Shown here: piece by piece, positions 19,103-35,055 of the stretch
How the letters are laid out: the number at the start of each line of letters is the position of its first letter
Numbering within the stretch: position 1 is the first letter of the stretch
NCBI GenBank assembly: GCA_965203555.1
Contig: CBDBCY010000004.1
Location: 777,434 to 841,433, forward strand
Length of the DNA stretch: 64,000 nt
Origin: Acidimicrobiia bacterium
GTDB taxonomy: Bacteria > Actinomycetota > Acidimicrobiia > Spongiisociales > ZC4RG35
Reading direction: 5' to 3'
Translations under genes and position numbers: made by a program
The notes under the pieces: generated by a model
What the model was told of the DNA's origin: nothing
What the model saw: the letters and a program-made list of their open reading frames with translations, nothing else
The model's database searches: none

Positions 19103-19684
19103 CTACTCCTCTCCGCCTTGCAACCACAGTCGGTGAATGCGGGAATCCTGCGTCAATTCCGGGTGAAACGAGGTGGCCGTCAAAGTCCTCGACCGCACCA
19201 TCACGGGATGTTTGCCGACCCGGGCCAGCACCTCCACCTCGCCGCCCACCTTCTCGACCCAGGGCGCCCTGATGAACACTGCGCGAAAGGGGTCTTCCAA
19301 TCCTTTCACTTCCAGGTCCATCTCAAAAGACTCGTTCTGTCGCCCGAAGGCGTTGCGCCGCACCACCACGTCCAAGACTCCCAGAAGCGGTTGATCTCCT
19401 TCTACGATGGAACCGGCCACCAGGATCATGCCCGCGCAGGTGGCCAGGGTGGGCAGACCGTCGAGCAGGGCGGCGCGCAGCGGCCGCAGCAGCCGGAACC
19501 GCTCCGCCAGACGACCGATGGTGGTTGACTCCCCTCCCGGAATCACCAAGCCGTCAATCCCCACCAGATCATCGGGGAGGCGCACCAGCCGGGTGGAGAC
19601 ATCCAGACGCTCAAGAGCCCACCGGTGCTCCCTGACATCCCCTTGCAGGGCCAGCACCCCTATGGTGGGCGGCATTATCACCAA
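19103..19684 (-). CDS. pdxT: pyridoxal 5'-phosphate synthase glutaminase subunit PdxT
   Basis: 193 aa. [31 protein letters not shown]. Confidence 0.95.
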
Positions 19685-20577
19685 CCCCGGGCGGCCAAAC
19701 GCTCAGCTGGTTCCAGGGTTCCTATCTCGATGCCCGCCATGGGCGCTCCCAGGCCTCGCGAGGCTTCAGCCACCATCTCCGGCCGATCCCAGAAGGTCGT
19801 GGCCTCCACGATGGCGGCGGCATAGGCGGCCGGGTCGGAGCTTTTGAATATCCCGCTGCCCACAAACACCCCGTCGCAACCCAGCGCCATCATCAACGCC
19901 GCGTCGGCGGGAGTGGCGAGCCCTCCGGCCGCGAAGTTCACCACCGGTAAACGCCCCAATTCCGCCACTTCCCCGACCAGTTCAACGGGAACTCGCATCT
20001 GTTGAGCCTGCCGGGCCATCTCCTCGTCGGACAGGTCGGCCAAACCTTCTATCTGGCTGGTAATGGCCCGCATGTGCCGTACCGCCTCCACCACATTCCC
20101 GGTGCCGGCTTCGCCCTTGGTTCGAATCATGGCTGCCCCCTCGGCGAGTCGCCGCAACCCCTCGCCAAGATCGCGGGCGCCACACACAAAGGGAGTGGTG
20201 AAGGGCCACTTGTCGACATGGTGTTCCTCATCGGCGGGAGTGAGTACCTCCGACTCGTCGATATAGTCCACCCCCAGAGTCTCCAATACCCTGGCTTCCA
20301 GGAAATGTCCGATCCGGCACTTCGCCATTACCGGTATGGTCACCGCGCCCATGATCTCGGTGACCTTGCCGGGATTGGCCATCCGAGCCACTCCCCCATC
20401 CTTGCGGATGTCGGAAGGAACCCGCTCCAGGGCCATCACCGCCACCGCACCCGCCTCTTCGGCGATCCGCGCCTGATCGGCGGTGACCACATCCATGATC
20501 ACCCCGCCCTTGAGCATGTCGGCCAGTCCCCGCTTCACCAACTCGGTCCCGGTCTTCATACCATTGCTCTGCTCCAT
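19678..20577 (-). CDS. pdxS: pyridoxal 5'-phosphate synthase lyase subunit PdxS
   Basis: From [30 protein letters not shown] to ...RLAARGW gives a canonical length of about 300 aa. The same frame stays open for 64 more codons up to a GTG at 20769 (see findings). Confidence 0.93.
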
Positions 20578-20810
20578 CCGCCATAGCGTACCAACCTCAC
20601 CGTCGCCCCCGTCCACAATACGTACTCCGACAAACCACGCCCTCTCTCCATTACCCCAGAAACCAACTCCGTCGGCCACCGCCAAGTCTCCCGTCAGAAC
20701 CCACCCATGTTCTGATTCCTGGTCCACCAAATCAAACCGGTTGTTGTACTTCCGAGCCACCTCCGCCACATAGAGGAGCGTGTACTGTCGCCGGTAGTGG
20801 TAGTGTCAAC

Positions 20811-23832: not shown

Positions 23833-24873
23833 TCAGCTTCGGCTTATCGCCCGTTCGTAACATTCTCGATAGGCGGGACCCACCTGATCCCATGAGAACC
23901 GCGCGGCCCGCTCCTGCCCTGCCGCTGACAGGCTCTTTGCAAGCGAAGCATCTCCCAGCACGTCGGCTACCTGATCCACCATTGCCGGAACGCTTCCTGT
24001 GGCGAACAACCTGGCCGCCGGGCCCGCCACGTCCCGGAAGGAGGGAAGGTCGGAGGCGACCACGGCACAACCGGCGGTCATTGCCTCCACCAGCACGATC
24101 CCGAAACTCTCGCCTCCCAGGTTGGGCGCCACGTAAACCTCCGCAGACCTCAGGTTCCGCTCCTTTACCTCCTCGCTGACCCTGCCCAGGAAGACGACAC
24201 CTTCCGGAGGGTCCGGGCGGGCGGCGCCCATCACCACCAATTCGGCGTGGACGTGACGCACCTTTATCTGCGGCCAGGCCTCGAGCAACAGGTCCAGGCC
24301 CTTGCGAGGCTCATCCCGCCCCAGGAAGACCACCCGCCCCCTCCGCCGCTCCACCGCGTCCACGCCGAACGAGACATCAACTCCGTTGGGGATGATCCTC
24401 TCCGGACCCCATCCGGGTGCCAATGAACCGGCCGCCAGACGGCTCACCGCCGTCACCATGGTGTCCGGCCTCTGGAACGACCGTACCCACGGACCCAAGC
24501 CACGATACAACCTCCTCACCCAAGCGGGGGGGTCGGCATGAAAGGTCACGACCTTGGGGCCGGGGGCCCGCAAAGCGGCCACCCCCACCCTGGGCATCAG
24601 TGGTTCGTGTACGTGAGTCACCTCTCCCCATCTCATCGCCTCCGCCACCCGGCCCGCAACCCCCGTGGACAGAGAAATCGGCGCCACCGAACGGTTGGCC
24701 CGGACCCGGGTCACCCGCCCCACGGCGGCGCCCTGCTCCCCCGGAGGGAGCAACGGGGCGATCAATCGAACCTCATCCCCTCGGCTGCGCAGCCAGCCCG
24801 CCAGGCCCTGTACCTGTGCCTGGACGCCTCCGTCCCGGGTCAGGTCATAGGGCGATACCAGACAGACCCGCAT
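23833..24873 (-). CDS. pimA: GT4 glycosyltransferase, PimA-like (phosphatidylinositol mannosyltransferase)
   Basis: 346 aa. MRVCLVSPYDLTRDGGVQAQV, ESFGIVLVEAM. Position downstream of the PI-synthase and acyltransferase genes, as in mycobacteria. Confidence 0.85.
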   Translation of the reverse strand: MRVCLVSPYDLTRDGGVQAQVQGLAGWLRSRGDEVRLIAPLLPPGEQGAAVGRVTRVRANRSVAPISLSTGVAGRVAEAMRWGEVTHVHEPLMPRVGVAALRAPGPKVVTFHADPPAWVRRLYRGLGPWVRSFQRPDTMVTAVSRLAAGSLAPGWGPERIIPNGVDVSFGVDAVERRRGRVVFLGRDEPRKGLDLLLEAWPQIKVRHVHAELVVMGAARPDPPEGVVFLGRVSEEVKERNLRSAEVYVAPNLGGESFGIVLVEAMTAGCAVVASDLPSFRDVAGPAARLFATGSVPAMVDQVADVLGDASLAKSLSAAGQERAARFSWDQVGPAYRECYERAISRS

Positions 24874-24882
24874 GAACCGAGG

Positions 24883-25761
24883 TCAAATCCGGTCGGAGGG
24901 CCAGTTGGGCTGGAGGAGATGCCACTGCTCGGGCGCGACCCTGATCAGGTCCTCGAAAGCGTCGGCCATCAGTTGCGCGCCTGCGTGAAGCCTCTCCGAC
25001 AGGGGTCCTTCCCGGGGTATGGCCAGGGGAGGCTTCAGGACTGCCCGGTAGCGACTCTTCTTTTCGCAATAGACAGCGACCGGGATCACCGGGCGCCCCG
25101 AACGGATCCCCAGCACCAGCGGTCCGGCCGGAAGGGTGGTTTCTTCCCCGAAAAACTGCACCGGGATGCCCTTGCCGCTCAAGTCCCGGTCCGAAGGTAG
25201 GCAAACGGCGGTTCGACCGGCGAGTTTTCCCTGCAACTCGCCGAGAAGCCCCTTGCGAGCGAACACCACCTTAATTCCGGTCAAGGCCCTGACACGCGAA
25301 AACCAGTCCCTGATGTAGGAGTTGGCCAGATTCTCGGCCACGGCCACCACCTCGATGTTCATGCCCCATACCACCACACCGGCCATCTCCCAATTGCCGA
25401 GATGCGGAAGCACCACCACCACACCCCTTCCGTCCCTCAAAGCCCTCTCCAGTAACTCGAAACCCTCCAGGTCGAATCGGTCCGCTACCCGCTTCACATT
25501 GCGGGGTCCGGCCCACAGCGACTCACCCCAGTACCGCCCGTAGCTGGCGAACATCTTTCTCACCGCCTTGGATCGGCTCCCCAGCGCCATATCCAATCCG
25601 GTGCGATTGGCATGTCTTCCCGCCATACGCCGGTGACGGGGAAGAAGCATGGCGGCGATCACCCCGGCGGCGCCGCCGAATCGTTGCACAACCCACAGCG
25701 GCCAAACGTGCATGAACCCGGAAGCCGCTCTCACACCCCAGTAGGCGAGGCGTGCCCTCAC
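24883..25761 (-). CDS. lysophospholipid/lauroyl (HtrB-family) acyltransferase, PIM acyltransferase-like
   Basis: LPHLGNWEMAG (the HX4D-type region) and about 293 aa from GTG 25761, which overlaps the upstream stop (GTGA). The longer ORF reaching 26043 overlaps the phosphatidyltransferase gene. Confidence 0.85.
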   Translation of the reverse strand: MRARLAYWGVRAASGFMHVWPLWVVQRFGGAAGVIAAMLLPRHRRMAGRHANRTGLDMALGSRSKAVRKMFASYGRYWGESLWAGPRNVKRVADRFDLEGFELLERALRDGRGVVVVLPHLGNWEMAGVVVWGMNIEVVAVAENLANSYIRDWFSRVRALTGIKVVFARKGLLGELQGKLAGRTAVCLPSDRDLSGKGIPVQFFGEETTLPAGPLVLGIRSGRPVIPVAVYCEKKSRYRAVLKPPLAIPREGPLSERLHAGAQLMADAFEDLIRVAPEQWHLLQPNWPSDRI

Positions 25762-26330
25762 CGCTTCAGTTCTCTGTACGCAACCGAGAACCGGTGAAGG
25801 GCCGACATCCAGCACAGGACGGTCATCGCCCACAACATGGGCTCCACCCACCCGGTGAGCAATCCCAGCGCGAAAAGGATCACTCTCTCGGCGCGACCTA
25901 TTAGTCCCCCGGTTCCCTTCAATCCCTCCGCCTCGGCCCGGGCCCGCAGATACGGAATCATCAATGCGCCGCTCACCGACAGCACCACCAGCATTAGCAC
26001 CCGTGGTTCGCCGGCCCGGGCAACCGCCAACCCCGAAAAACAAGCCACCTCACCCAGCCGGTCCACCGAAGCGTCCAGAAACGCTCCCCGTTTTGTAACT
26101 TTGTCGGCCGCCCGGGCCAGCGTACCGTCCAGACCGTCGATCGCCGAACCTGCCAAAGCGATCAGCGACCCGACCACCAGATACTCAAGTGAAATGATCA
26201 CCGCTCCCACGATGGTGACCCCCAACCCGAACAGAGTGAGGGCGGCAGGACTGATCCCGCAGCGGTTCAAGAAGCGGCCGATGGGATCGAGCACCCTTCT
26301 CAGGTGAGGGCGTACCCAAATGTCGATCAC
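25758..26330 (-). CDS. pgsA: CDP-alcohol phosphatidyltransferase (PI-phosphate synthase-like)
   Basis: 190 aa. DGLDGTLAR...DASVDRLGE (the CDP-alcohol motif D-G-x2-A-R...D-x3-D), multi-TM. Confidence 0.9.
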   Translation of the reverse strand: MIDIWVRPHLRRVLDPIGRFLNRCGISPAALTLFGLGVTIVGAVIISLEYLVVGSLIALAGSAIDGLDGTLARAADKVTKRGAFLDASVDRLGEVACFSGLAVARAGEPRVLMLVVLSVSGALMIPYLRARAEAEGLKGTGGLIGRAERVILFALGLLTGWVEPMLWAMTVLCWMSALHRFSVAYRELKR

Positions 26331-26595: not shown

Positions 26596-28644
26596 TTGTC
26601 ACCCGATTCGATTCGCACCATTGCCCTGATCGGCCACGGAGGCAGTGGCAAGACTTCCCTGGCTGAAGCACTTCTCTACACCGCCGGGGTGACCACCCGA
26701 CTCGGTTCGGTGGACCAGGGCACCACCATCTTGGACCATGAGCCGGAGGAGGAGGAACGCAGGCAATCCTTGAACCTCTCGGTGGCCTCCTTCAAGTGGA
26801 ACGGATGCAAGATCAACCTGATCGATACTCCCGGATACGCCGACTTCTCAGGCGATGCCCGCTCCGCCATCCGGGTGGCGGACTTGGCACTCTTCGTGGT
26901 TTCGGGGGTCGACGGCGTGGAAGTTCAAACCGAGCTGATGTGGAAGGTGGCCGCCGACGAAGGGACTCCGCGCGCGGTGTTCGTCACCAAGCTCGACCGG
27001 GACCGATCCTCCCTCGACCGCACTCTCGCCGAGTTGCGGGACGCCTTTGGAACCGGAATCGCTCCCCTGGTGATCAACGTGGGACAAGAAGCGAACCTGA
27101 GGGGAGTGGCCCGGGTCAGTTCAGGACAGGCAGCACTCTACGAGGAGGGCAACCCCCGGGGCGTCATCGCCGCCGAGGCCCCCGAAGAAGTCGCTTCGGT
27201 CCTGGAAGAAGCCCACATGGAACTGGTGGAGTCGGTAGTCGAGACAGACGACGACCTGATGGACGCCTACTTCGAAGGGGAGGAGCCCAGCCAGGAAGTG
27301 ATCGTCTCCGTCATCCGGGAAGCCATGTTGACCGGAGAACTCTTCCCGGTGCTGGCCGGTTCGTCCAGCCGACTGATCGGAATAGATGTCCTGGCCGACT
27401 TCCTCAAAGTTTTTGCGCCTACCCCGCTGGAGCGATCCGCCCCGCCGCTCGCGGAGGGCGAAATACAGATATCGGGAGACGGCGGCGCCACTGCCTACGT
27501 ATTCAAGACGATCGGCGACCCGTACGTAGGGCGTATCTCCATTCTGAGAGTGTTCAGCGGATCTTTCAAAGCCGACGACCACCTGGAATTGGCCGGGGGG
27601 CCGACGGTCAGAGTGAGCAATCTGTTCTTCCTTCAGGGCCGCAACACCGATCCGGCCGCTGAGGTGTCCTGTGGAGATGTGGCGGCAGTGGCCAAGGTCG
27701 ACAGGGCCACTACCGGCGCCACCCTGCGGTCGGTGGGGAAAACCGCGGTGGTGCTCCCCGCGGTCTACCCGAAGCCGGTCATGGAATTGGCCATCTTCCC
27801 ACGGTCCACGCAGGATGAGGAGAAGCTCTCCACCGCCCTGCAGCGGGCTGTCGAGGAAGATCCCACCCTAGCGGTTGAACGCCGGTCTGAAACCGGTGAA
27901 ACCATCCTGGCAGGACTGGGCGACGTGCACCTGGACGTCACCTTGGCGCGCATCAAACGCAAGTACGGCGTGGAAGTGGAAACCGCCCTTCCCAGGATCG
28001 CCTATCGGGAAACGGTCAAGGGCCGGGCCGCGGCAGAGGGAAAGCACAAGAAACAGACCGGGGGACGCGGGCAATTCGGCGTGGCTTTCGTGCGTTTTGC
28101 TCCCAAGCCCCAGGGCGAAGGCTACGAGTTCATCGACTCCATCAAGGGAGGCGCCATCCCCCGCCAGTACATTCCGGCGGTCGACAAGGGGATCAGGGAG
28201 GCCTTCGCCCGCGGGATTCTGGCCGGTTTTCCGGTCATCGACGTGTCGGCCGAGGTCTACGACGGCAAGTATCATTCCGTCGACTCCGATGAGTTGTCTT
28301 TCCGCATGGCGGGAATCGCCGCCGTACGTTCTGCCGGGTCGGACCTGCGACCGGTCCTGCTGGAGCCCATCACCCGTCTATCGGTCAAAGTGCCCGAGGA
28401 GTACACCGGAGACGTAATAGGTGACATAAACGCAAAACGGGGCCGGGTGTACGGCATGGAGACGGATGGATCGCTTCGGGTTATTTCCGCAGAGGTCCCC
28501 ATGGCGGAGATCCAACGGTACGCGGTCGACCTTCGCTCGATGACCAGTGGACGCGGTACCTTCGAGGTGGCCTTCGACCACTATTCGGAGATTCCACATC
28601 AGGAAGCCCAGAAAGTGATCAGCGCATCCCGGAAGGAAGACTGA
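26596..28644 (+). CDS. elongation factor G-like GTPase (EF-G paralogue)
   Basis: 682 aa. TTG start with GGAGGA 5 nt upstream. G1 is GHGGSGKTS rather than AHIDAGKT; DTPGYADF; EF-G domains II-V are recognisable. Confidence 0.92.
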   Translation: MSPDSIRTIALIGHGGSGKTSLAEALLYTAGVTTRLGSVDQGTTILDHEPEEEERRQSLNLSVASFKWNGCKINLIDTPGYADFSGDARSAIRVADLALFVVSGVDGVEVQTELMWKVAADEGTPRAVFVTKLDRDRSSLDRTLAELRDAFGTGIAPLVINVGQEANLRGVARVSSGQAALYEEGNPRGVIAAEAPEEVASVLEEAHMELVESVVETDDDLMDAYFEGEEPSQEVIVSVIREAMLTGELFPVLAGSSSRLIGIDVLADFLKVFAPTPLERSAPPLAEGEIQISGDGGATAYVFKTIGDPYVGRISILRVFSGSFKADDHLELAGGPTVRVSNLFFLQGRNTDPAAEVSCGDVAAVAKVDRATTGATLRSVGKTAVVLPAVYPKPVMELAIFPRSTQDEEKLSTALQRAVEEDPTLAVERRSETGETILAGLGDVHLDVTLARIKRKYGVEVETALPRIAYRETVKGRAAAEGKHKKQTGGRGQFGVAFVRFAPKPQGEGYEFIDSIKGGAIPRQYIPAVDKGIREAFARGILAGFPVIDVSAEVYDGKYHSVDSDELSFRMAGIAAVRSAGSDLRPVLLEPITRLSVKVPEEYTGDVIGDINAKRGRVYGMETDGSLRVISAEVPMAEIQRYAVDLRSMTSGRGTFEVAFDHYSEIPHQEAQKVISASRKED

Positions 28645-29975
28645 TGCCTACCGAGGACGGCGCCCGACTACATTACCGAGGGCAGGAATTGGGACTACCC
28701 CTGGTGGCGCCGACCGTGGGAGACTGGGGCATTGACATCTCCCGGCTGAGGGCCGACTTGGGACTGATCACCGTGGACCGGGGATTCGGCAACACCTCGC
28801 AGAACCCCAGTTCGGTCAGCTTCGTCAACGGCGAACAGGGAACCTTGAGCTACCGGGGCTACCCGATCGAAGAGTTGGCCGGCCGGGTTGGTTTCTTGGA
28901 GGTGGCCTGGCTGCTCCTGTACGAGGACCTTCCCTCTCCCTCCCAACTCGACCGTTTCGAGGAGGAAATCCGGGACTTCTCCGACGTGGGCGATTACATG
29001 CAGAGCTTCCTGGAGGCCTTCCCGGAAGAGAGCACTCCCATGGCTACCCTGGCCGCCGGGGTGCTCAGCATGGTAGGCCGCCATCCCGAGGCCTCCCAGA
29101 CCAGCAAGCCCGAAATGTGGGAGAGAGCCACCCGCATTCTCCTCGCCGAAATGCCGGTGCTGGCCGCCCTGATAAACCGCCGATGCCTGGGACTGGACCC
29201 CATCGAGATAAGAACCGATCTGCCCTACACCGCTCGGTTCTATCACACCGCAGTGGCTGAGTCGGAGTCATCTCCTGCTCCCGATCCGCAACGCCTTGCC
29301 GTGCTGGAGATGCTGGAGCTTCTCCATAGCGACCACGGACAGAACTGCTCGTCCTCGGCGGTGCAGTTGGTCGGATCGGGCCGGGCCAGCATCTTCGCCT
29401 CGATAGCAGCGGGGATAAACGCCCTGTCGGGTCCTCTCCACGGCGGCGCCAACCAGAGGGTCCTGGGAATGCTGCAGGAGATCCAGATGGAAGGAGGAGA
29501 CGTGAGAAAGGCCCTGGATCGGGCAAAGGACCGTTCCGACCCGTTCCGACTCATGGGCTTTGGTCACCGGGTATACCGAAACTACGACCCGAGAGCAAGA
29601 ATCATCAAAGACGCGGCCGCCGAGGTGCTGGCCGGTCTGGGCACGGACGATCCCCTCCTGCAGTTGGCCCAGGAACTGGAGAATGCGGCATTGGCGGACG
29701 AGTACTTCGTAAAGCGCAAGCTTTATCCCAACGTCGACTTCTACTCCGGTTTTCTGTATCGGGCGCTGGGCTTTCCCACCCAAATGTTCACCGTGCTTTT
29801 TGCAATAGGCCGGTTGCCGGGTTGGCTTTCCCACTGGCGGGAGATGGCTTCCGACCCCAAGAGCCGCATTTTCCGCCCCCGCCAGGTCTATGTGGGCCGA
29901 ACCGAACGGAAACTGGAGGACCGCGGCGCAACGACCCGATCTCAGACGGCGGGCGCCTCCAGTTCCTCTATGTAA
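28644..29975 (+). CDS. gltA: citrate synthase
   Basis: 443 aa. GTLSYRGYPIEEL, HSDHGQNCSS, GPLHGGAN, MGFGHRVYRNYDPR. The start overlaps the EF-G-like stop (TGATG). Confidence 0.95.
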   Translation: MPTEDGARLHYRGQELGLPLVAPTVGDWGIDISRLRADLGLITVDRGFGNTSQNPSSVSFVNGEQGTLSYRGYPIEELAGRVGFLEVAWLLLYEDLPSPSQLDRFEEEIRDFSDVGDYMQSFLEAFPEESTPMATLAAGVLSMVGRHPEASQTSKPEMWERATRILLAEMPVLAALINRRCLGLDPIEIRTDLPYTARFYHTAVAESESSPAPDPQRLAVLEMLELLHSDHGQNCSSSAVQLVGSGRASIFASIAAGINALSGPLHGGANQRVLGMLQEIQMEGGDVRKALDRAKDRSDPFRLMGFGHRVYRNYDPRARIIKDAAAEVLAGLGTDDPLLQLAQELENAALADEYFVKRKLYPNVDFYSGFLYRALGFPTQMFTVLFAIGRLPGWLSHWREMASDPKSRIFRPRQVYVGRTERKLEDRGATTRSQTAGASSSSM

Positions 29976-30433
29976 ACCTCTGAGCACAGTTCACCGTCAG
30001 CCCCGTCAATCTCCACCAGGGCACGGCGCAGGGGCGGGCTTTCCGCAGAGTACAGGATCACCTGCCAGCGGGGCCGAGATCTGATCCCGGTAAAGCTGAC
30101 CGCCACGGAGGCGTGCCCCACCGCAAACGGCACCTCGCCCGCCGCCACTCTCAAAGCCCCGGCCTGATCGAGGGAGAGGGGCCACGACGCCCACCAGTGG
30201 TAGGCGGCCATCCCCGTCAACAGGACGACAGAGATCCACAGGCCCGGGGTGGAAAACGCCAATCCTCCCAAGACGACGGCCGTTCCCAGGTAAACCCACC
30301 CGGCCCAACTACGCCGGCGTGGATCCGGAAAGCGGTACGGCCCCACGGCCGCGGCGTCCAAATCGTCGGGGACCGCCTCGGCCCGGGCCAGGTCGTCCGG
30401 GATCACTATCCCGTCTTGTCCCTTGGCGCTCAT
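29942..30433 (-). CDS. hypothetical membrane protein (two predicted TM helices)
   Basis: 163 aa. WAGWVYLGTAVVLGGLAF / LWISVVLLTGMAAYHWW. Starts 7 nt after the thrS stop. Its 3' end overlaps the citrate synthase 3' end by 34 nt (convergent). Confidence 0.55.
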   Translation of the reverse strand: MSAKGQDGIVIPDDLARAEAVPDDLDAAAVGPYRFPDPRRRSWAGWVYLGTAVVLGGLAFSTPGLWISVVLLTGMAAYHWWASWPLSLDQAGALRVAAGEVPFAVGHASVAVSFTGIRSRPRWQVILYSAESPPLRRALVEIDGADGELCSEVYIEELEAPAV

Positions 30434-30439
30434 CGGAGA

Positions 30440-33331
30440 TCAGTCAAACGATCCGCTGGGAGGAAGAGCTTCCTCGGCCAGTGTCGCGGCGATCTCGACC
30501 AGGGGCACAGCTCTTTTCTCTTGCTTTTCTCCGAAGCGGCGCAGTCCCACGGTGTTGTTACTGACATCCTGATCGCCCACCACCATCACAACCGGGTGTT
30601 TGGCGGTCATTGCTCTCCGTATCTTCTCCCCCAGACGATCCGACGAAGCATCCACCCTGACCCGCAAACCCATTGACTGCAGCTTGTCCGCCACCTGTCG
30701 CGCATAGTCGAGGTGACGGTCGGCCACCGGGTTGACCGTGACTTGGATCGGCGCCAGCCACATGGGGAATGCTCCCGCATAGTGTTCCACCAGCACCCCG
30801 AAGAACCTTTCTATCGATCCCGCCTTGGCGCTGTGAATCATCACCGGTCTTCGAAAGACATTGTCGGCGCCGGCGTATTCGAGACCGAAGTTGTCGGGAA
30901 GGGCAAAGTCAACCTGGATGGTGGACATCTGCCAGCGTCTCCCGATGGCGTCCCTGACGTGAACGTCGATCTTGGGCCCGTAGAACGCTCCCTCGCCCTC
31001 TGCCACCCGGTGGGATACTTCTCCCTTCTGCAGAGACTCCAGGAGGGCCTCCTCGGCTACCTCCCACAACTGGGGATCTCCCACGAATTTGTCTGGTCGG
31101 GTGGAGAGATCCGCCTCGAATTCGGAAAACCCGAAGTCCTGCAACCAGCTGAGAACGAAGAGCAGATGCATGTCCAATTCAGCCGGCAACTGTTGACGGG
31201 TACAGAAGGTGTGGGAGTCGTCCTGGGTGAAACCTCGGGCACGCAACGCACCGTGAATCACTCCCGAACGTTCATAGCGATAAACCCCGCCCAATTCCGA
31301 CAGACGGATCGGCAGGTCCCGGTAGGAGCGACCCCGGCTGCGGTAGATCAGCACATGAAACGGGCAGTTCATGGGCTTTACCAGGTATTCATCACCGCCG
31401 TCCAGAACCATCGGCGGATACATGTTCTCTGAATAGAAGTCAAGGTGACCTGAGGTTTCCCAAAGTTGGCTACGAGCCAAGTGGGGAGAGAAAACAAACT
31501 CAAACCCGAAGCGTTGATGGAGTTGGCGGCTGTGATCTTCCATCAACTTCCTTACCATCCCCCCCTTGGAATGCCATACCATTAGTCCCGCCCCCAACTG
31601 CGGGGGGAAGGAAAACAAGTCCAATGCGGGTCCCAATCTGCGGTGATCCCGTCGCTCGGCTTCTTCCAGACGGTGCAGATACTCCTTCAAGGCGCGGGGG
31701 GACTCCCAAGCCGTTCCATAGATTCTCTGCAATTGCGGTCTGTTCTCATCGCCCCTCCAATAGGCGCCGGAAGACCGAAGCAGTTTTACAGCTTTGAGTC
31801 TTCCAGTGGAAGGTACATGCGGACCGAGACACAAATCAACGAAACCGTCATTTGAGTAAACAGTTACTTCCTCTCCTTCCGCCACTTCAGACGAATCGAC
31901 CGACTCGATGATCTCCAATTTGAAGGGATGTGACCGGAACACTTCCAACGCCTCGGCCCGGCTCATCGATCTGCGTATGAAAGGCTGATCAGCAGCAATC
32001 AACTGATCCATTCTCTCTTCCAGGCGGGACAGGTCTTCGGGCGAGAAAGGCTGATCGATCCCGAAGTCGTAATAGAAGCCGTCTTCAATGGGAGGGCCGA
32101 TCGCAAAGGTGGATCCGGGGAAGAGGTCCAGCACCGCCTGAGCGAGCACATGAGCAGCCGAGTGCCGCATTACGCGCCGACCTTCTTCGGTCCGGTCAGT
32201 GACTATCCGAAGTTTTCCGGACCTTCGAAGAGGTCGACCGAGATCCATCAACTCGCCATCAAGCTCGACAGCCACTGCCGCTCTGGCCAGCCCAGGCCCG
32301 ATCCGGCGGGCCAACTCCTGGCCCGTGATACCAGGTTCGCCCGTCCGGAGACTTCCGTCGGGCAATTCCCACCGAAGCGTCACGTCTCTTTCCTCAACTC
32401 GACGTAAAAGGGTACCCGCTCCCGCCGAACTCGAACGCTCATCCAGAGTCAGCAGATAGGAATGGTCGCTGTGATGATGCCGAAATCCCATGGACCGATA
32501 CATATTCAGGGCAGCCACATTCCCAGCGTCCACATAGAGAACGCAAGCTCGGGCGTGATGGTAGGTATGCATGTGTCTGATGCCCTCCAACAGCAACGCC
32601 TTACCCAGACCCATCCGCTGGTATCCCGGCACCACGCCGATCACATAAATCTCCCCGGCTCGGGGAGAAGGCACCTTGGTCCAACAGAATCCGGCCAGCA
32701 CCTCGCCGTCCCAGGCCATTCTCAAACCCTCCGAGGAGAACCAGGGACGCCTCCGGCGGCGGTCCAGATCATTCAACCTCCAATTCCCGTTCTCCGGGTG
32801 GCCGGAAAAGACCCGGTTGTTCCCCTCCAACCAGGCCTCCTCGTCAATCCCTTCCCGAAAACCCCTCACCTCTATACCAGGAGGAAACCGCGGTAATGCG
32901 ACCAGGGGAAGGGGGGCACGCATGTGATGCAACTCGCGTTCCAGGCCAAAGCCTGCCCGCTCAGCGGCGTCTGCCACCTGTGGAATATAAGCCCACAGGC
33001 GGATCCCCGACCCACCTCGGATCTTCACTTCGCGTCGCACGTTCTCCAAGAGTTCGTTAAGGACCGACTCCATCCGGTAGTCGGGATGCACCGCCGCTTC
33101 CACAGTCCACAATCCCTGGTCTTCCTCAATGAAAGCCAGATACGACACAATTCCGCCGTCACCCTCCGCCACCAGCCCTGCAGTCTCGGCGCCCATGTCG
33201 ACCGGAGGCTCCACCAGATAGAAGTGCTTTCGCTCTCCCAAAGCCGGGTGGAGATCGTGTTCCTCAATGTCGGCAATCAACTGGCGCAGAGCATCAAGAT
33301 CGGTCTGCAGATCTACGCTACGCAGGTTCAA
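30440..33331 (-). CDS. thrS: double-GNAT (mycothiol synthase MshD-like) module fused in frame to threonine--tRNA ligase
   Basis: 963-aa uninterrupted ORF. TTG start with AAAGGAGG 9 nt upstream. Residues 1 to about 300 form two GNAT halves (IYVIGVVPGYQRMGLGKALL, GNVAALNMYRSMGF). From about residue 312 on: TGS domain, editing-domain HSAAHVL, and class II core (HRRLG, FSPHLA, GGVYRYERSG, GSIERF). Confidence 0.93.
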   Translation of the reverse strand: MNLRSVDLQTDLDALRQLIADIEEHDLHPALGERKHFYLVEPPVDMGAETAGLVAEGDGGIVSYLAFIEEDQGLWTVEAAVHPDYRMESVLNELLENVRREVKIRGGSGIRLWAYIPQVADAAERAGFGLERELHHMRAPLPLVALPRFPPGIEVRGFREGIDEEAWLEGNNRVFSGHPENGNWRLNDLDRRRRRPWFSSEGLRMAWDGEVLAGFCWTKVPSPRAGEIYVIGVVPGYQRMGLGKALLLEGIRHMHTYHHARACVLYVDAGNVAALNMYRSMGFRHHHSDHSYLLTLDERSSSAGAGTLLRRVEERDVTLRWELPDGSLRTGEPGITGQELARRIGPGLARAAVAVELDGELMDLGRPLRRSGKLRIVTDRTEEGRRVMRHSAAHVLAQAVLDLFPGSTFAIGPPIEDGFYYDFGIDQPFSPEDLSRLEERMDQLIAADQPFIRRSMSRAEALEVFRSHPFKLEIIESVDSSEVAEGEEVTVYSNDGFVDLCLGPHVPSTGRLKAVKLLRSSGAYWRGDENRPQLQRIYGTAWESPRALKEYLHRLEEAERRDHRRLGPALDLFSFPPQLGAGLMVWHSKGGMVRKLMEDHSRQLHQRFGFEFVFSPHLARSQLWETSGHLDFYSENMYPPMVLDGGDEYLVKPMNCPFHVLIYRSRGRSYRDLPIRLSELGGVYRYERSGVIHGALRARGFTQDDSHTFCTRQQLPAELDMHLLFVLSWLQDFGFSEFEADLSTRPDKFVGDPQLWEVAEEALLESLQKGEVSHRVAEGEGAFYGPKIDVHVRDAIGRRWQMSTIQVDFALPDNFGLEYAGADNVFRRPVMIHSAKAGSIERFFGVLVEHYAGAFPMWLAPIQVTVNPVADRHLDYARQVADKLQSMGLRVRVDASSDRLGEKIRRAMTAKHPVVMVVGDQDVSNNTVGLRRFGEKQEKRAVPLVEIAATLAEEALPPSGSFD

Positions 33332-33433
33332 GAGTCATGACCTCCTTTGAATGGACCAATTGAATGGACCGAGCGCGGATTGAGCAGACCCTCCAATGGC
33401 AAACCCTGAACCATTCCGATCAGCAGGAAAAAG

Positions 33434-33505
33434 TGGGCGCTACTGGGATCGAACCAGTGACCTCTGCCGTGTGAAGGCAGCGCTCTCCCGCTGAGCTAAG
33501 CGCCC
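33434..33505 (-). tRNA. tRNA-Val (anticodon CAC)
   Basis: Reverse complement folds as a cloverleaf: acceptor GGGCGCT/AGCGCCC, D arm GCTC..GAGC, anticodon stem CTGCC/GGCAG with loop TTCACAC, T arm ACTGG-TTCGATC-CCAGT. 72 nt, CCA not encoded. Confidence 0.93.
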
Positions 33506-33540
33506 GCTTAAACAGAGAATGGTACCTTGATTACATTCCC

Positions 33541-33936
33541 TCAGGAACGGGTTCGGGCGATACCACTCTTGCTGAGCACGGCAGCAGCCACACCCATCTC
33601 CCGCCATGCCTTATAGGAAATACCCTTACGAGTGGAGTAAGACTTGGCCGCATTGACAAACTCTGCCTCCAGCGCATTGATATCACCCGGATCTTCCGCG
33701 CGACGTTTCTCAGCGTCGATCCGTTGTTGGATCAAGGCAAGTCTCTGTAACTGATCCGACTCGTTCTCAAGTTTCTCTTGCACTTCTTCCAGTTCCTTTT
33801 GAGGCGACTTCCGACGTCCTCGACGCCCTGCCGAGGAGTGCAGGGCCTCCAAATATGCACGCACAGCCTTCGTCTGGGCTCGGGCTGCGGCTCTCGCTGC
33901 CCGCACCTCTGGAGAAAGATTTCTCCGTTTATCCAT
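33541..33936 (-). CDS. hypothetical basic coiled-coil protein
   Basis: About 131 aa from MDKRRNLSPEVRAARAAARAQTKAVRAYLEAL.... Central charged helix (QKELEEVQEKLENESDQLQRLALIQQRIDAEKRRAE), C-terminal KGISYKAWREMGVAAAVLSKSGI. The DNA is visibly AT-richer. Lies between tRNA genes. Confidence 0.5.
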   Translation of the reverse strand: MDKRRNLSPEVRAARAAARAQTKAVRAYLEALHSSAGRRGRRKSPQKELEEVQEKLENESDQLQRLALIQQRIDAEKRRAEDPGDINALEAEFVNAAKSYSTRKGISYKAWREMGVAAAVLSKSGIARTRS

Positions 33937-34289
33937 CCACTCTCCCCTTTCGTTGCGAAATTGAGAAACAATAGTAGGTGCCTTGACAATCTGCTGCAAA
34001 CCGTTGGATATTGTTTTACAAGAGCAAGTAATAACCTGTGATCCACTATCTAGAGAATCTCGGCGGAGTTCTTCTTCCTTTTATGGATAAGTTTCAGAAA
34101 CCATCTAAGGTTTCCCAACCCTCGCCTTCGGAAAGCGGCAACCAAGTAACTTAGTGCGACACCAATACTCCAGTCGACACAAAGGCTGGTCCCAAGAATG
34201 CGGTGGTGCCGAGCGATGCCCGCTAGGACTTGACCTAACGAGGCCGGCGCGTCACCCGGTTCGTGGCATTACCGGGCGACAAGAAAGAG

Positions 34290-34361
34290 TGGGCCCTAGT
34301 GGAATTGAACCACTGACCTCTTCCGTGTCAAGGAAGCGCTCTTCCTCTGAGCTAAGGGCCC
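34290..34361 (-). tRNA. tRNA-Val (anticodon GAC)
   Basis: Reverse complement: acceptor GGGCCCT/AGGGCCC, anticodon stem CTTCC/GGAAG with loop TTGACAC, T arm AGTGG-TTCAATT-CCACT. 72 nt. Confidence 0.93.
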
Positions 34362-34382
34362 CATCGAAAACACCCTTTGCGG

Positions 34383-34454
34383 AGGCGACGTCCGGAATCG
34401 AACCGGAGTAACGGGTTTTGCAGACCCGTGCCTAATCCACTCGGCCACGTCGCC
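34383..34454 (-). tRNA. tRNA-Cys (anticodon GCA)
   Basis: Reverse complement: acceptor GGCGACG/CGTCGCC, D stem GCCG..AGGC (G13-A22 as in tRNA-Cys), anticodon stem CGGGT/ACCCG with loop CTGCAAA, T arm TCCGG-TTCGATT-CCGGA. 72 nt. Confidence 0.9.
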
Positions 34455-34487
34455 GCGCTCTTCCACATCAGCGGAAAAACCTGGAAG

Positions 34488-34560
34488 AGCGGAAGACGGG
34501 GCTTGAACCCGCGACCTCAACCTTGGCAAGGTTGCGCTCTACCAGCTGAGCTACTTCCGC
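34488..34560 (-). tRNA. tRNA-Gly (anticodon GCC)
   Basis: Reverse complement: acceptor GCGGAAG/CTTCCGC, anticodon stem CAACC/GGTTG with loop TTGCCAA, T arm GCGGG-TTCAAGC-CCCGT. 73 nt. Confidence 0.93.
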
Positions 34561-34585: not shown

Positions 34586-35023
34586 TTACCATCCGGTGGA
34601 CCCGAATCCAGCTTCGCCGCGTTCGGATTCGCTCAAGCGGTCGACAGCAACCAGGCGGATCGCCGGCACAGCCACCACCATTAACTGGGCGATACGGTCG
34701 CCTCGGGCAAACCTCACGGTCTCCTGCGACAGATTGACCAGAATCACGGACACTTCCCCCCGGTATCCAGAATCTATCAATCCCGGACTGTTCACAACCC
34801 CGATACCAAGCCGGTCAGCCAAACCGCTGCGAGGCAGCACCAATCCCGCATATCCGTCGGGAATGGCCAGGGCCAAACCAGTCGGCAGCTTTTTGCGTTG
34901 CCCGGGCGCCAATTCCACGTCAACAGCGGTGGGAAGATCAAAAGCTGCATCACCCTTATAGGCAATGGTGGGCAAAAAGGCTTCACCTTCTATTTTTAGG
35001 ACGCTAATATTGAGGTTCTGCAT
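34586..35023 (-). CDS. dut: dUTP diphosphatase
   Basis: From MQNLNISVLK...: AYKGDAAFDL, VLPRSGLA, GLIDSGYRGEV, GDRIAQL, GFGSTG motifs. The ORF is open to 35050. Confidence 0.92.
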   Translation of the reverse strand: MQNLNISVLKIEGEAFLPTIAYKGDAAFDLPTAVDVELAPGQRKKLPTGLALAIPDGYAGLVLPRSGLADRLGIGVVNSPGLIDSGYRGEVSVILVNLSQETVRFARGDRIAQLMVVAVPAIRLVAVDRLSESERGEAGFGSTGW

Positions 35024-35055
35024 AGTGGATGTCGGGCGGACACCACCCAAAGTAG

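Follow-up and report, generated by a model that had tools for sequence, protein, structure and literature searches.

MshD catalyses the acetyl-CoA-dependent acetylation of Cys-GlcN-Ins, and ThrRS charges tRNA-Thr. The MshD of Mycobacterium tuberculosis, Rv0819 (PDB entries 1OZP, 1P0H and 2C27; NCBIfam TIGR03448), is a double GNAT protein of about 300 aa. GNAT-like folds also occur in aminoacyl-tRNA-dependent transferases. A union of an aminoacyl-tRNA synthetase with a transferase, LysX, is conserved across mycobacteria. In M. tuberculosis, LysX (Rv1640c) contains an MprF-type lysyl-transferase fused to lysyl-tRNA synthetase (PMC2713425), and the synthetase hands its product to the fused transferase. 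The window analysed here, a 64-kb stretch of Acidimicrobiia DNA, shows an MshD-type module and a ThrRS in a single reading frame (Table 1). Residues 1-297 share the double GNAT arrangement of Rv0819, match TIGR03448 end to end and would have the same acetyltransferase role, but the mshD of the window has no stop of its own and continues into thrS. Its ThrRS shares the full architecture of ThrS (TIGR00418) but has its start codon inside a longer ORF, so that an N-terminally extended form with MshD may also be made. Like LysX, the ORF unites an actinobacterial synthetase and a transferase domain in one polypeptide; unlike LysX, it shows no sign of a substrate link between them, the fusion is a singleton, and the GNAT part is a predicted acetyl-CoA-dependent MshD orthologue. 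We place this fusion with translationally coupled neighbours whose stop and start overlap (xTGA type) and with sporadic fusions of adjacent genes by stop loss or frameshift; from relatives with such overlaps the window differs only by the frame of the mshD tail, which removes the stop.

Table 1. Features of the mshD-thrS locus in the 64-kb window.
Feature	Coordinates	Strand	Description and basis
963-codon ORF	30440-33331	(-)	Uninterrupted; TTG start 33329-33331, stop 30440-30442; mshD and thrS in frame; ORF lister and sequence
tRNA-Val(CAC)	33433-33505	(-)	101 nt 5' of the mshD start, same strand; ARAGORN; Rfam tRNA 68 bits
Shine-Dalgarno of mshD, AGGAGG	33341-33346	(-)	9 nt 5' of TTG; sequence
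MshD module, residues 1-297	32441-33331	(-)	Mycothiol synthase-type double GNAT; conserved end ...HHSDHSYLLTLD
19-codon "linker" ERSSSAGAGTLLRRVEERD	32384-32440	(-)	In relatives, variable mshD tail and thrS 5' leader; protein tails, DNA alignments, frame/stop table
GGTACCCTT block	32408-32416	(-)	TACCCT invariant in 17/17 lineages; DNA alignment
Shine-Dalgarno of thrS, GAGGAA	32390-32395	(-)	GAGG core invariant across relatives
GTG, conserved thrS start codon position	32381-32383	(-)	In frame with mshD here; 6 nt (agagac) after GAGGAA
Complete bacterial ThrRS, residues 317-963	30440-32383	(-)	647 aa and a stop codon; TGS, editing, class II core and anticodon-binding domains

An earlier note on this DNA had described a single ORF without a stop between the modules, an MshD-type double GNAT in about the first 300 residues and a complete ThrRS after the junction, and all three descriptions are borne out. 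The ORF lister and the sequence show no internal stop in the 963-aa frame. With TIGR03448 (mycothiol synthase MshD, NCBIfam; curated cutoff 163.1 bits) residues 11-292 score 198.4 bits, and residues 1-312 scanned alone reach 202.3 bits; the match runs end to end (model positions 9/10-294 of 294). The M. tuberculosis MshD structures 2C27/1OZP match with E = 2.5e-28 (query residues 59-295, chain 59-311). In Pfam only the C-terminal GNAT half, which contains the QRMGLGKA motif, is detected (Acetyltransf_1, 189-283), and the evidence for the N-terminal half is the end-to-end match to TIGR03448 together with that to 2C27/1OZP. As judged from these profiles, the module has the two-GNAT, ~300-aa architecture of MshD, and the columns without variation in the alignment of 31 MshD sequences are conserved in it too. 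Orthologues start at the same MNLR... position, and over the full alignment the module is 61-82% identical to separate proteins of 297-322 aa in relatives. Close relatives of this part carry the name mycothiol synthase in NCBI and JGI.

In the synthetase part, residues 389-953 match TIGR00418 thrS with 647.4 bits (cutoff 383.65), and four Pfam domains are over their gathering cutoffs: TGS (323-378), tRNA_SAD (489-538), the class II core tRNA-synt_2b (645-851) and the anticodon-binding HGTP_anticodon (863-953). It is 82-93% identical to the stand-alone ThrRS proteins (639-663 aa) of relatives, with the start at the same position. The best ThrRS match is 91% identical in the protein collection and 93% by tblastn among the fetched loci, and the best locus of the genome collection is 78% identical in MshD. 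The tRNA-Val(CAC) gene is the upstream boundary of the mshD-thrS unit. Among the 20 ORFs of the 64-kb window that were scanned for mshA, mshB and mshC, none reaches an Msh cutoff; a GT4 protein (23833-24873) shows 35.9 bits against the MshA cutoff of 462.5. The assembly of the window looks clean: its coding density is about 91%, with 60 long ORFs, and in each of the 11 housekeeping genes scanned the match covers most or all of the model.

The earlier note had raised the question of a fusion shared by orthologous thrS loci, and the survey answers it in the negative: mshD and thrS are separate genes in 16 of 16 related Acidimicrobiia lineages, whose junctions were read as DNA, with the gene order unchanged, so the junction of the window is strain-specific. 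The fused architecture recurs in none of these 16 lineages and in none of 30 aligned orthologue clusters, all of which terminate MshD with a stop. L001-L003 show the order dUTPase, a 133-aa gene, the GNAT gene (311-322 aa), thrS (646-663 aa), a 163-aa gene, citrate synthase and EF-G. The two genes are likewise split in L004-L008 and in 12 GTDB species (L009-L020), where they are adjacent. In more distant Acidimicrobiia the matches to mshD and thrS are about 1.1-1.4 kb apart, so linkage of the two genes is not obligatory; in L021 this gap contains a 247-aa ORF on the opposite strand.

Conservation of MshD fades out near residue 297 in the alignment of 30 orthologues. Past this residue the tails vary in length and frame (LDAS, GTLPVELRxxx, VPFLSS and GTLRCRVEERS, each followed by its stop), and these differences in length, frame and stop position arise because the tail runs into the thrS leader. 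In this clade the thrS start follows the conserved part of the MshD domain after 46-66 nt, and the stretch equivalent to the linker is indel-rich, with mshD stops at differing positions and frames: most relatives examined have the stop inside the stretch, the others at the thrS start. In L001, L004 and L010-L012 the mshD TGA overlaps the thrS start as GTGA; in these and in L019 the TGA overlaps the start or lies a few nt past it, and in L020 a TAG abuts the ATG. Of the 17 lineages, three have thrS and mshD in the same frame (offset 0), seven have an offset of 1 and seven an offset of 2. The two genes are in frame and one stop codon apart in L003 (TGA) and L020 (TAG), and in 10 of the 16 relatives no stop interrupts the thrS frame between the end of the MshD domain and the thrS start, so that one indel in the tail could fuse them. 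By these alignments, the fused state is one mutation away in many lineages: a single stop-codon change or, plausibly, a single indel in the tail would fuse the genes in 12 of the 16 relatives.

Three elements of the junction do not vary among the 17 lineages, whatever the mshD frame, and all are present in the window: TACCCT, GAGG and the start codon. The thrS start of relatives is the codon of the window GTG or the next one (GTG, GTG-ATG, TTG-ATG or ATG), and the ThrRS N-terminus xTLRWELPDG is conserved among them. The earlier note had placed GAGGAA, 6 nt and GTG at this junction, and the positions are exact on the minus strand with the GTG in frame; the stand-alone ThrRS that it proposed from this codon, of about 648 aa, would be 647 aa long, and the codon lies at the conserved thrS initiation site. 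Since TACCCT is invariant in whichever frame mshD reads it, it is best described from the alignment as a DNA/RNA-level element of the thrS leader. A search of Rfam over 32000-33700 (E <= 5) shows only the upstream tRNA-Val, and a T-box, or any further RNA element of known type, was therefore rejected for the junction. A hairpin sequestering the Shine-Dalgarno is not supported either: RNAalifold predicts a 4-bp helix (CCUU:GAGG) without covariation in the leader, and the predicted fold of the window leader is no more stable than those of shuffled sequences (z = +0.53).

The junction DNA of the window (within 32375-32450) is GAGCGTTCGAGTTCGGCGGGAGCGGGTACCCTTTTACGTCGAGTTGAGGAAAGAGACGTG, and the corresponding peptide of the 963-aa chimera is ...SYLLTLDERSSSAGAGTLLRRVEERDVTLRWELPDGSLR.... 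The spacer contains a first segment of 27 nt, a length common to the window, L001 and L004, and a second segment of 24 nt, with TTTT or TTT, whose length is common to the window, L005 and L008. Compared in this way, neither segment looks aberrant by itself.

Searches for other fused proteins showed none among their best hits. With the full-length protein as query against 5.8 billion clusters, the 120 best hits are all 617-685 aa long and cover at most 69% of the query, and with MshD as query against the same clusters the 120 best hits are all 212-356 aa long. In an exhaustive HMMER search with residues 1-420 against 1.84 billion representatives, none of the 150 best hits spans MshD and TGS; 148 align over one stretch only. 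A literature search on an MshD-ThrRS or GNAT-ThrRS fusion family gave nothing relevant; such a family was rejected, since neither the protein nor the literature searches show a member. The junction pattern GGTACCCTTN{3,5}GTCGAGTTGAGGA was found in the JGI metagenomes only in MKWU01001593.1, which is L005. A second assembly of the same species was not found in the protein and genome collections or in the JGI metagenome scan.

The reading we favour, and consider probable, is that two independent neighbouring genes have drifted into one reading frame in this lineage, giving a sporadic junction without a stop. MshD has no conserved C-terminal tail, and past about residue 297 the ribosome would read the thrS leader up to some stop. 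Indels in the tail would have shifted this stop repeatedly; it lies just after the domain, within the Shine-Dalgarno, or as a TGA overlapping the thrS start. The 27 + 24 nt spacer of the window puts mshD in the thrS frame, where by chance there is no stop. The lost stop codon proposed by the earlier note thus holds in that no in-frame stop is present, but the change is more exactly an indel-driven change of frame in a variable tail. ThrRS would still be initiated at its own GAGGAA-N6-GTG, as conservation of the initiation site suggests, and since this internal site coincides with that of all relatives, the stand-alone enzyme of 647 aa is most likely the main product. Ribosomes started at mshD would go on to make the 963-aa MshD-linker-ThrRS chimera, which may thus also be produced and is probably tolerated by the cell, because the 19-residue linker is rich in Ser, Gly, Ala, Arg and Glu and joins the TGS domain, which is N-terminal and peripheral. 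The reading calls for no new chemistry.

That the stop-less junction is a true allele is itself fairly likely. The competing account, in which mshD and thrS are separate in the real genome and an erroneous indel of one base within the 57-nt spacer merged their frames, is the less probable of the two. In its favour, the fused state occurs only once in the 17 lineages and more than 30 orthologue clusters compared, removal of one tail base restores the GTGA overlap of L001, L004 and L010-L012, the spacer contains a T4 run (CCCTTTTAC), and the names of related contigs (ptg..., ctg..., and chromosome-level OZ/OY records) suggest long-read assemblies. However, the T4 run and the 24-nt second segment are common to L005, and L008 shows an equal length with T3; the first segment has the length found in L001 and L004 and homopolymers of at most 3; the spacer differs from that of every relative by several substitutions plus indels, not by one clean indel; and the rest of the window shows no gene breaks of the frameshift type. 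A single homopolymer-type error was set aside as the sole account, since the lengths of the two segments are common to different relatives, which neither establishes nor refutes an error. As the fused state is seen in one sequence only (1 of 17 lineages) and the species is represented by one assembly, a true allele and a single-base assembly error are indistinguishable by the present sequences. A state so accessible by mutation and yet found in one of 17 lineages could be mildly deleterious; if so, an artefact or a mutation of very recent date would be the likelier source.

An adaptive bifunctional protein, in which for example the dosage or location of MshD is tied to ThrRS without new chemistry, would suit the adjacency of mshD and thrS conserved in 12 GTDB species, the frequent stop/start overlaps that suggest translational coupling among them, and the integrity of both modules; it is very improbable, given that the fused architecture recurs in no search, that the linker is unconstrained leader sequence, read in three frames across relatives and conserved at the nucleotide level only, that an independent thrS initiation site is kept, and that the genes lie apart in more distant Acidimicrobiia. 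Scarcely credible is the speculative alternative of the earlier note, an acyl or aminoacyl transfer coupled to Thr-AMP or Thr-tRNA, in which the GNAT module would work on a ThrRS product; FemX, MprF and L/F-transferase are the models for such an activity. It can draw on the GNAT-like folds of aminoacyl-tRNA-dependent transferases and on LysX as a genuine synthetase-transferase fusion, but the module is an orthologue of stand-alone MshD, over the TIGR03448 cutoff and close to the separate proteins of relatives, and the fusion is unconserved. At E <= 0.1 the N-terminal part of the fusion matches in Pfam solely acetyl-CoA GNAT families (Acetyltransf_1/7/9/10 and FR47), and the whole 963-aa protein shows no match to the profiles of FemXAB, the MprF/LysX C-terminal domain or L/F-transferase; with two genes in all relatives examined, a dedicated fusion is not supported. 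Also highly improbable is the boldest reading, in which a true allele and a chimera made in the cell would capture, as a natural snapshot, how an aminoacyl-tRNA synthetase begins to accrete domains, at the extreme with a tethered GNAT acting on ThrRS or its product, and in which, separately, the TACCCT block would be an undescribed translational control element of thrS in Acidimicrobiia.

The favoured reading, a chance fusion of frames, opens no new biochemical question at the mshD-thrS junction, and its meaning is mainly a caution: an eye-catching "fusion" of a GNAT and an aminoacyl-tRNA synthetase can be a frame accident in the labile tail and leader between two coupled genes, and surveys of domain architecture in metagenome-assembled genomes will collect such singletons. 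If the allele is real, it would be a small natural case of how easily adjacent, translationally coupled genes fuse; since initiation of the downstream gene at its own site can persist, such a fusion need not cost the cell its essential ThrRS.

The mshD-thrS locus of the window is best explained as a sporadic in-frame run-on of two ordinary, independently functional genes. Each detail observed in the earlier note, namely a single ORF with MshD-type and ThrRS modules and a Shine-Dalgarno sequence and GTG at the junction (gttGAGGAAagagacGTG), is upheld by the ORF listing, the NCBIfam and Pfam scans and the sequence. The HMM search of the N-terminal residues that it had proposed reaches TIGR03448 (mycothiol synthase MshD; curated cutoff, 163.1 bits) with 198.4 bits over residues 11-292 of the fused protein and 202.3 bits for residues 1-312 by themselves, and the M. 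tuberculosis MshD structures 2C27 and 1OZP match the N-terminal part (E = 2.5e-28). Residues 389-953 match TIGR00418 (threonine-tRNA ligase) with 647.4 bits (cutoff, 383.65). Pfam shows Acetyltransf_1 at residues 189-283 and TGS at residues 323-378, followed by tRNA_SAD, tRNA-synt_2b and HGTP_anticodon. The MshD module retains all columns invariant among 31 aligned sequences, and the testable membership characters of MshD and ThrRS are present in the N-terminal and C-terminal modules, respectively. By these sequence comparisons, each module is an intact orthologue of a stand-alone protein.

The full 963-aa query against 5.8 billion protein clusters shows only stand-alone ThrRS of 617-685 aa among its best 120 matches, the top one with 91% identity, and query coverage does not exceed 69% in any of the 120. 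The best 120 matches of the MshD part are all 212-356 aa long, and several carry the NCBI or JGI name mycothiol synthase. In an exhaustive HMMER search of 1.84 billion representatives with residues 1-420 (MshD, linker and TGS), no protein among the best 150 spans the MshD and TGS parts, and 148 of them match the query in one stretch; a protein with both parts, if present, should be among these 150. The literature search found no description of a GNAT-ThrRS fusion. Three relatives' contigs obtained from protein-cluster matches (L001-L003) show the same gene order as the window: dUTPase, a 133-aa gene, a GNAT gene, thrS, a 163-aa gene, citrate synthase and EF-G. In all three, the gene calls separate thrS (646-663 aa) from the GNAT gene (311-322 aa), and mshD and thrS are likewise two genes in the contigs L004-L008. 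All orthologues examined are thus two genes, an outcome that the earlier note had itself named as a refutation, and the functional fusion on which it speculated is unsupported.

Among genomes representing the GTDB species, one for each, 12 Acidimicrobiia species (L009-L020) show 61-78% MshD identity, and in these thrS starts 46-66 nt past the end of the MshD alignment. Some bear isolate names (Plut_, RHO1/RHO3, SB0665) that look like those of sponge- or coral-derived bins. The mshD-thrS adjacency is kept in these 12 GTDB species, which belong to a single Acidimicrobiia clade. In a second tier, with about 40% MshD identity, about 1.1-1.4 kb separates the mshD match from the thrS match; this holds for about 13 Acidimicrobiia loci that are more distant, and in L021 an oppositely oriented ORF of 247 aa lies in the gap. 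In loci outside both tiers, thrS was not found within 3.5 kb.

The 30 aligned MshD orthologues are conserved as far as ...HHSDHSYLLTLD, at about residue 297, and the tails past it are unrelated in sequence and length (LDAS*, GTLPVELRxxx*, VPFLSS*, GTLRCRVEERS*). These tails diverge because one nucleotide stretch is read in different frames: DNA alignments show ...GGTACCCTTnnnGTCGAGTTGAGGAG...xTG read in all three frames, lineage by lineage. None of the 17 lineages compared (the window and 16 related Acidimicrobiia) departs from TACCCT, from the GAGG core of the Shine-Dalgarno sequence or from the position of the start codon. What is constrained is thus the nucleic acid of the thrS leader and not the protein sequence of the MshD tail. 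Aligned in this way, the thrS initiation region of the window is recognizable as the conserved one, intact, and the "linker" of the fused ORF as leader sequence. Relative to mshD, thrS is in frame (offset 0) in three lineages, offset by 1 in seven others and by 2 in the remaining seven. The mshD stop is located directly past the domain in L005 and L008 (TAG), and also in L014 and L016-L018; it is a TGA within the Shine-Dalgarno region in L002 and L015, and lies just upstream of this region in L003. In L001, L004 and L010-L012 a TGA overlaps the thrS start, in L019 it is a few nucleotides beyond the start, and in L020 the stop abuts it (TAG-ATG). L003 and L020 have mshD and thrS in a shared frame, parted by one stop codon. 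The thrS frame is open back to the end of the MshD domain in 10 of the 16 relatives, in a scan that left out the TAG of L020 at the start position, this stop being taken from the frame and stop table. The first spacer segment of the window has 27 nt, as in L001 and L004, and the second has 24 nt, as in L005 and L008, which together give offset 0; this frame lacks any stop, the sole such case among the 17 lineages.

TACCCT is invariant in the close lineages irrespective of mshD frame or stop position. At the DNA level, GGGTACCC/AGGGTACCCT is palindromic, and base pairing of CCUU with GAGG of the Shine-Dalgarno sequence is conceivable. The fold of the thrS leader is not significant and shows no covariation, and the block has no Rfam match. 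The block may be a thrS control element. More distant Acidimicrobiia (L023-L038) also show TACCC-containing motifs, 40-60 nt ahead of a thrS that follows another gene, not mshD.

Features of the mshD-thrS locus and neighbouring genes in the window
Feature	Position	Strand	Remarks
Fused ORF	30440-33331	-	963 aa, TTG start, no internal stop (ORF listing)
AGGAGG	9 nt 5' of the TTG of the fused ORF	-	Sequence
GAGGAA	32390-32395	-	Sequence; position as in the earlier note
GTG	32381-32383	-	Sequence; position as in the earlier note
(G)GTACCCT(T) block	32408-32416	-	24-33 nt upstream of thrS start; also in L001-L020
tRNA-Val(CAC)	33433-33505	-	Directly upstream of mshD
tRNA-Val(GAC)/Cys(GCA)/Gly(GCC) cluster	34289-34560	-	Between a 152-aa ORF and the dUTPase-sized ORF
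dUTPase-sized ORF	34586-35050		
163-aa ORF	29942-30433	-	Convergent with citrate synthase ORF; 3' ends overlap 34 nt
Citrate synthase ORF	28644-29975	+	443 aa vs 413-428 aa in relatives
682-aa ORF	26596-28644		EF-G counterpart of relatives by position and size; final stop-codon base overlapped by the citrate synthase start
GT4 glycosyltransferase and phosphatidylinositol-mannoside acyltransferase homologue	23833-26043	-	Adjoining
PdxS ORF	19678-20769	-	363 aa as listed; model match from residue 69

The thrS starts of the relatives disagree among gene callers, and the called products range from 646 to 663 aa. In L001 (4001-5992) the call of 663 aa has its start 48 nt before the conserved one and shares 52 nt with mshD. 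L005 (3948-5891) and L006 (3924-5891) align identically to the MshD and ThrRS of the window, but the thrS products called for the two differ (647 vs 655 aa). The thrS frame stays open 5' of the true start and so invites such over-extended calls. From the position of tRNA-Val(CAC), the mshD-thrS unit begins right past a tRNA gene. The GT4 glycosyltransferase is not an mshA (MshA, 35.9 bits vs cutoff 462.5; BshA is also far below cutoff); the adjacent acyltransferase homologue matches NF005919 with 185 bits (cutoff, 209), and the two genes look like a PIM-type lipid glycosylation pair. The N-terminus of PdxS is probably over-extended by the first-start rule; the late onset of the match is not due to a frameshift.

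The stop-less junction is probably a real allele. An assembly artefact, which we consider rather unlikely, is suggested by the singleton status of the fused state, by the T4 run in the spacer, and by the fact that a tail one base shorter would reproduce the common GTGA overlap. However, the T4 run and the length of the second segment are common to L005 and L008, the other segment shows no homopolymer longer than 3, and the spacer departs from each relative by several substitutions plus indels. The window as a whole also looks accurate: its coding density is about 91%, and 11 housekeeping proteins (HflX, PdxS, MiaA, MiaB, RNase Y, RecA, CinA, malate dehydrogenase, SecD, polyphosphate glucokinase and PIM acyltransferase) are matched by NCBIfam models along most or all of each model. 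A second assembly of this species was not found in the protein clusters, GTDB-species genomes or JGI metagenomes searched.

With the locus read as a run-on of two genes, ThrRS initiation would continue at GAGGAA-N6-GTG, and ribosomes arriving from mshD would fail to terminate, giving a 963-aa chimera. This chimera would be tolerated by the cell because a flexible 19-residue linker joins the peripheral N-terminal TGS domain. No finding points to new chemistry. The GNAT part has acetyl-CoA-type families as its sole Pfam matches and retains its invariant columns; an expressed chimera representing a snapshot of domain accretion, or having a coupled activity, is highly improbable. The whole ORF does not resemble a conserved multidomain fusion: its architecture does not recur in the relatives or among the database matches examined, and its linker shows no constraint. 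The LysX fusion is generally regarded as conserved across mycobacteria. In LysX of M. tuberculosis, an aaRS is truly fused to a transferase which uses its product (PMC2713425), and the likeness of the present mshD-thrS locus to it is only superficial. The locus belongs to the category of adjacent, translationally coupled genes fused via a frame change and a missing stop, and the event, which is of a known kind, is probably ephemeral.
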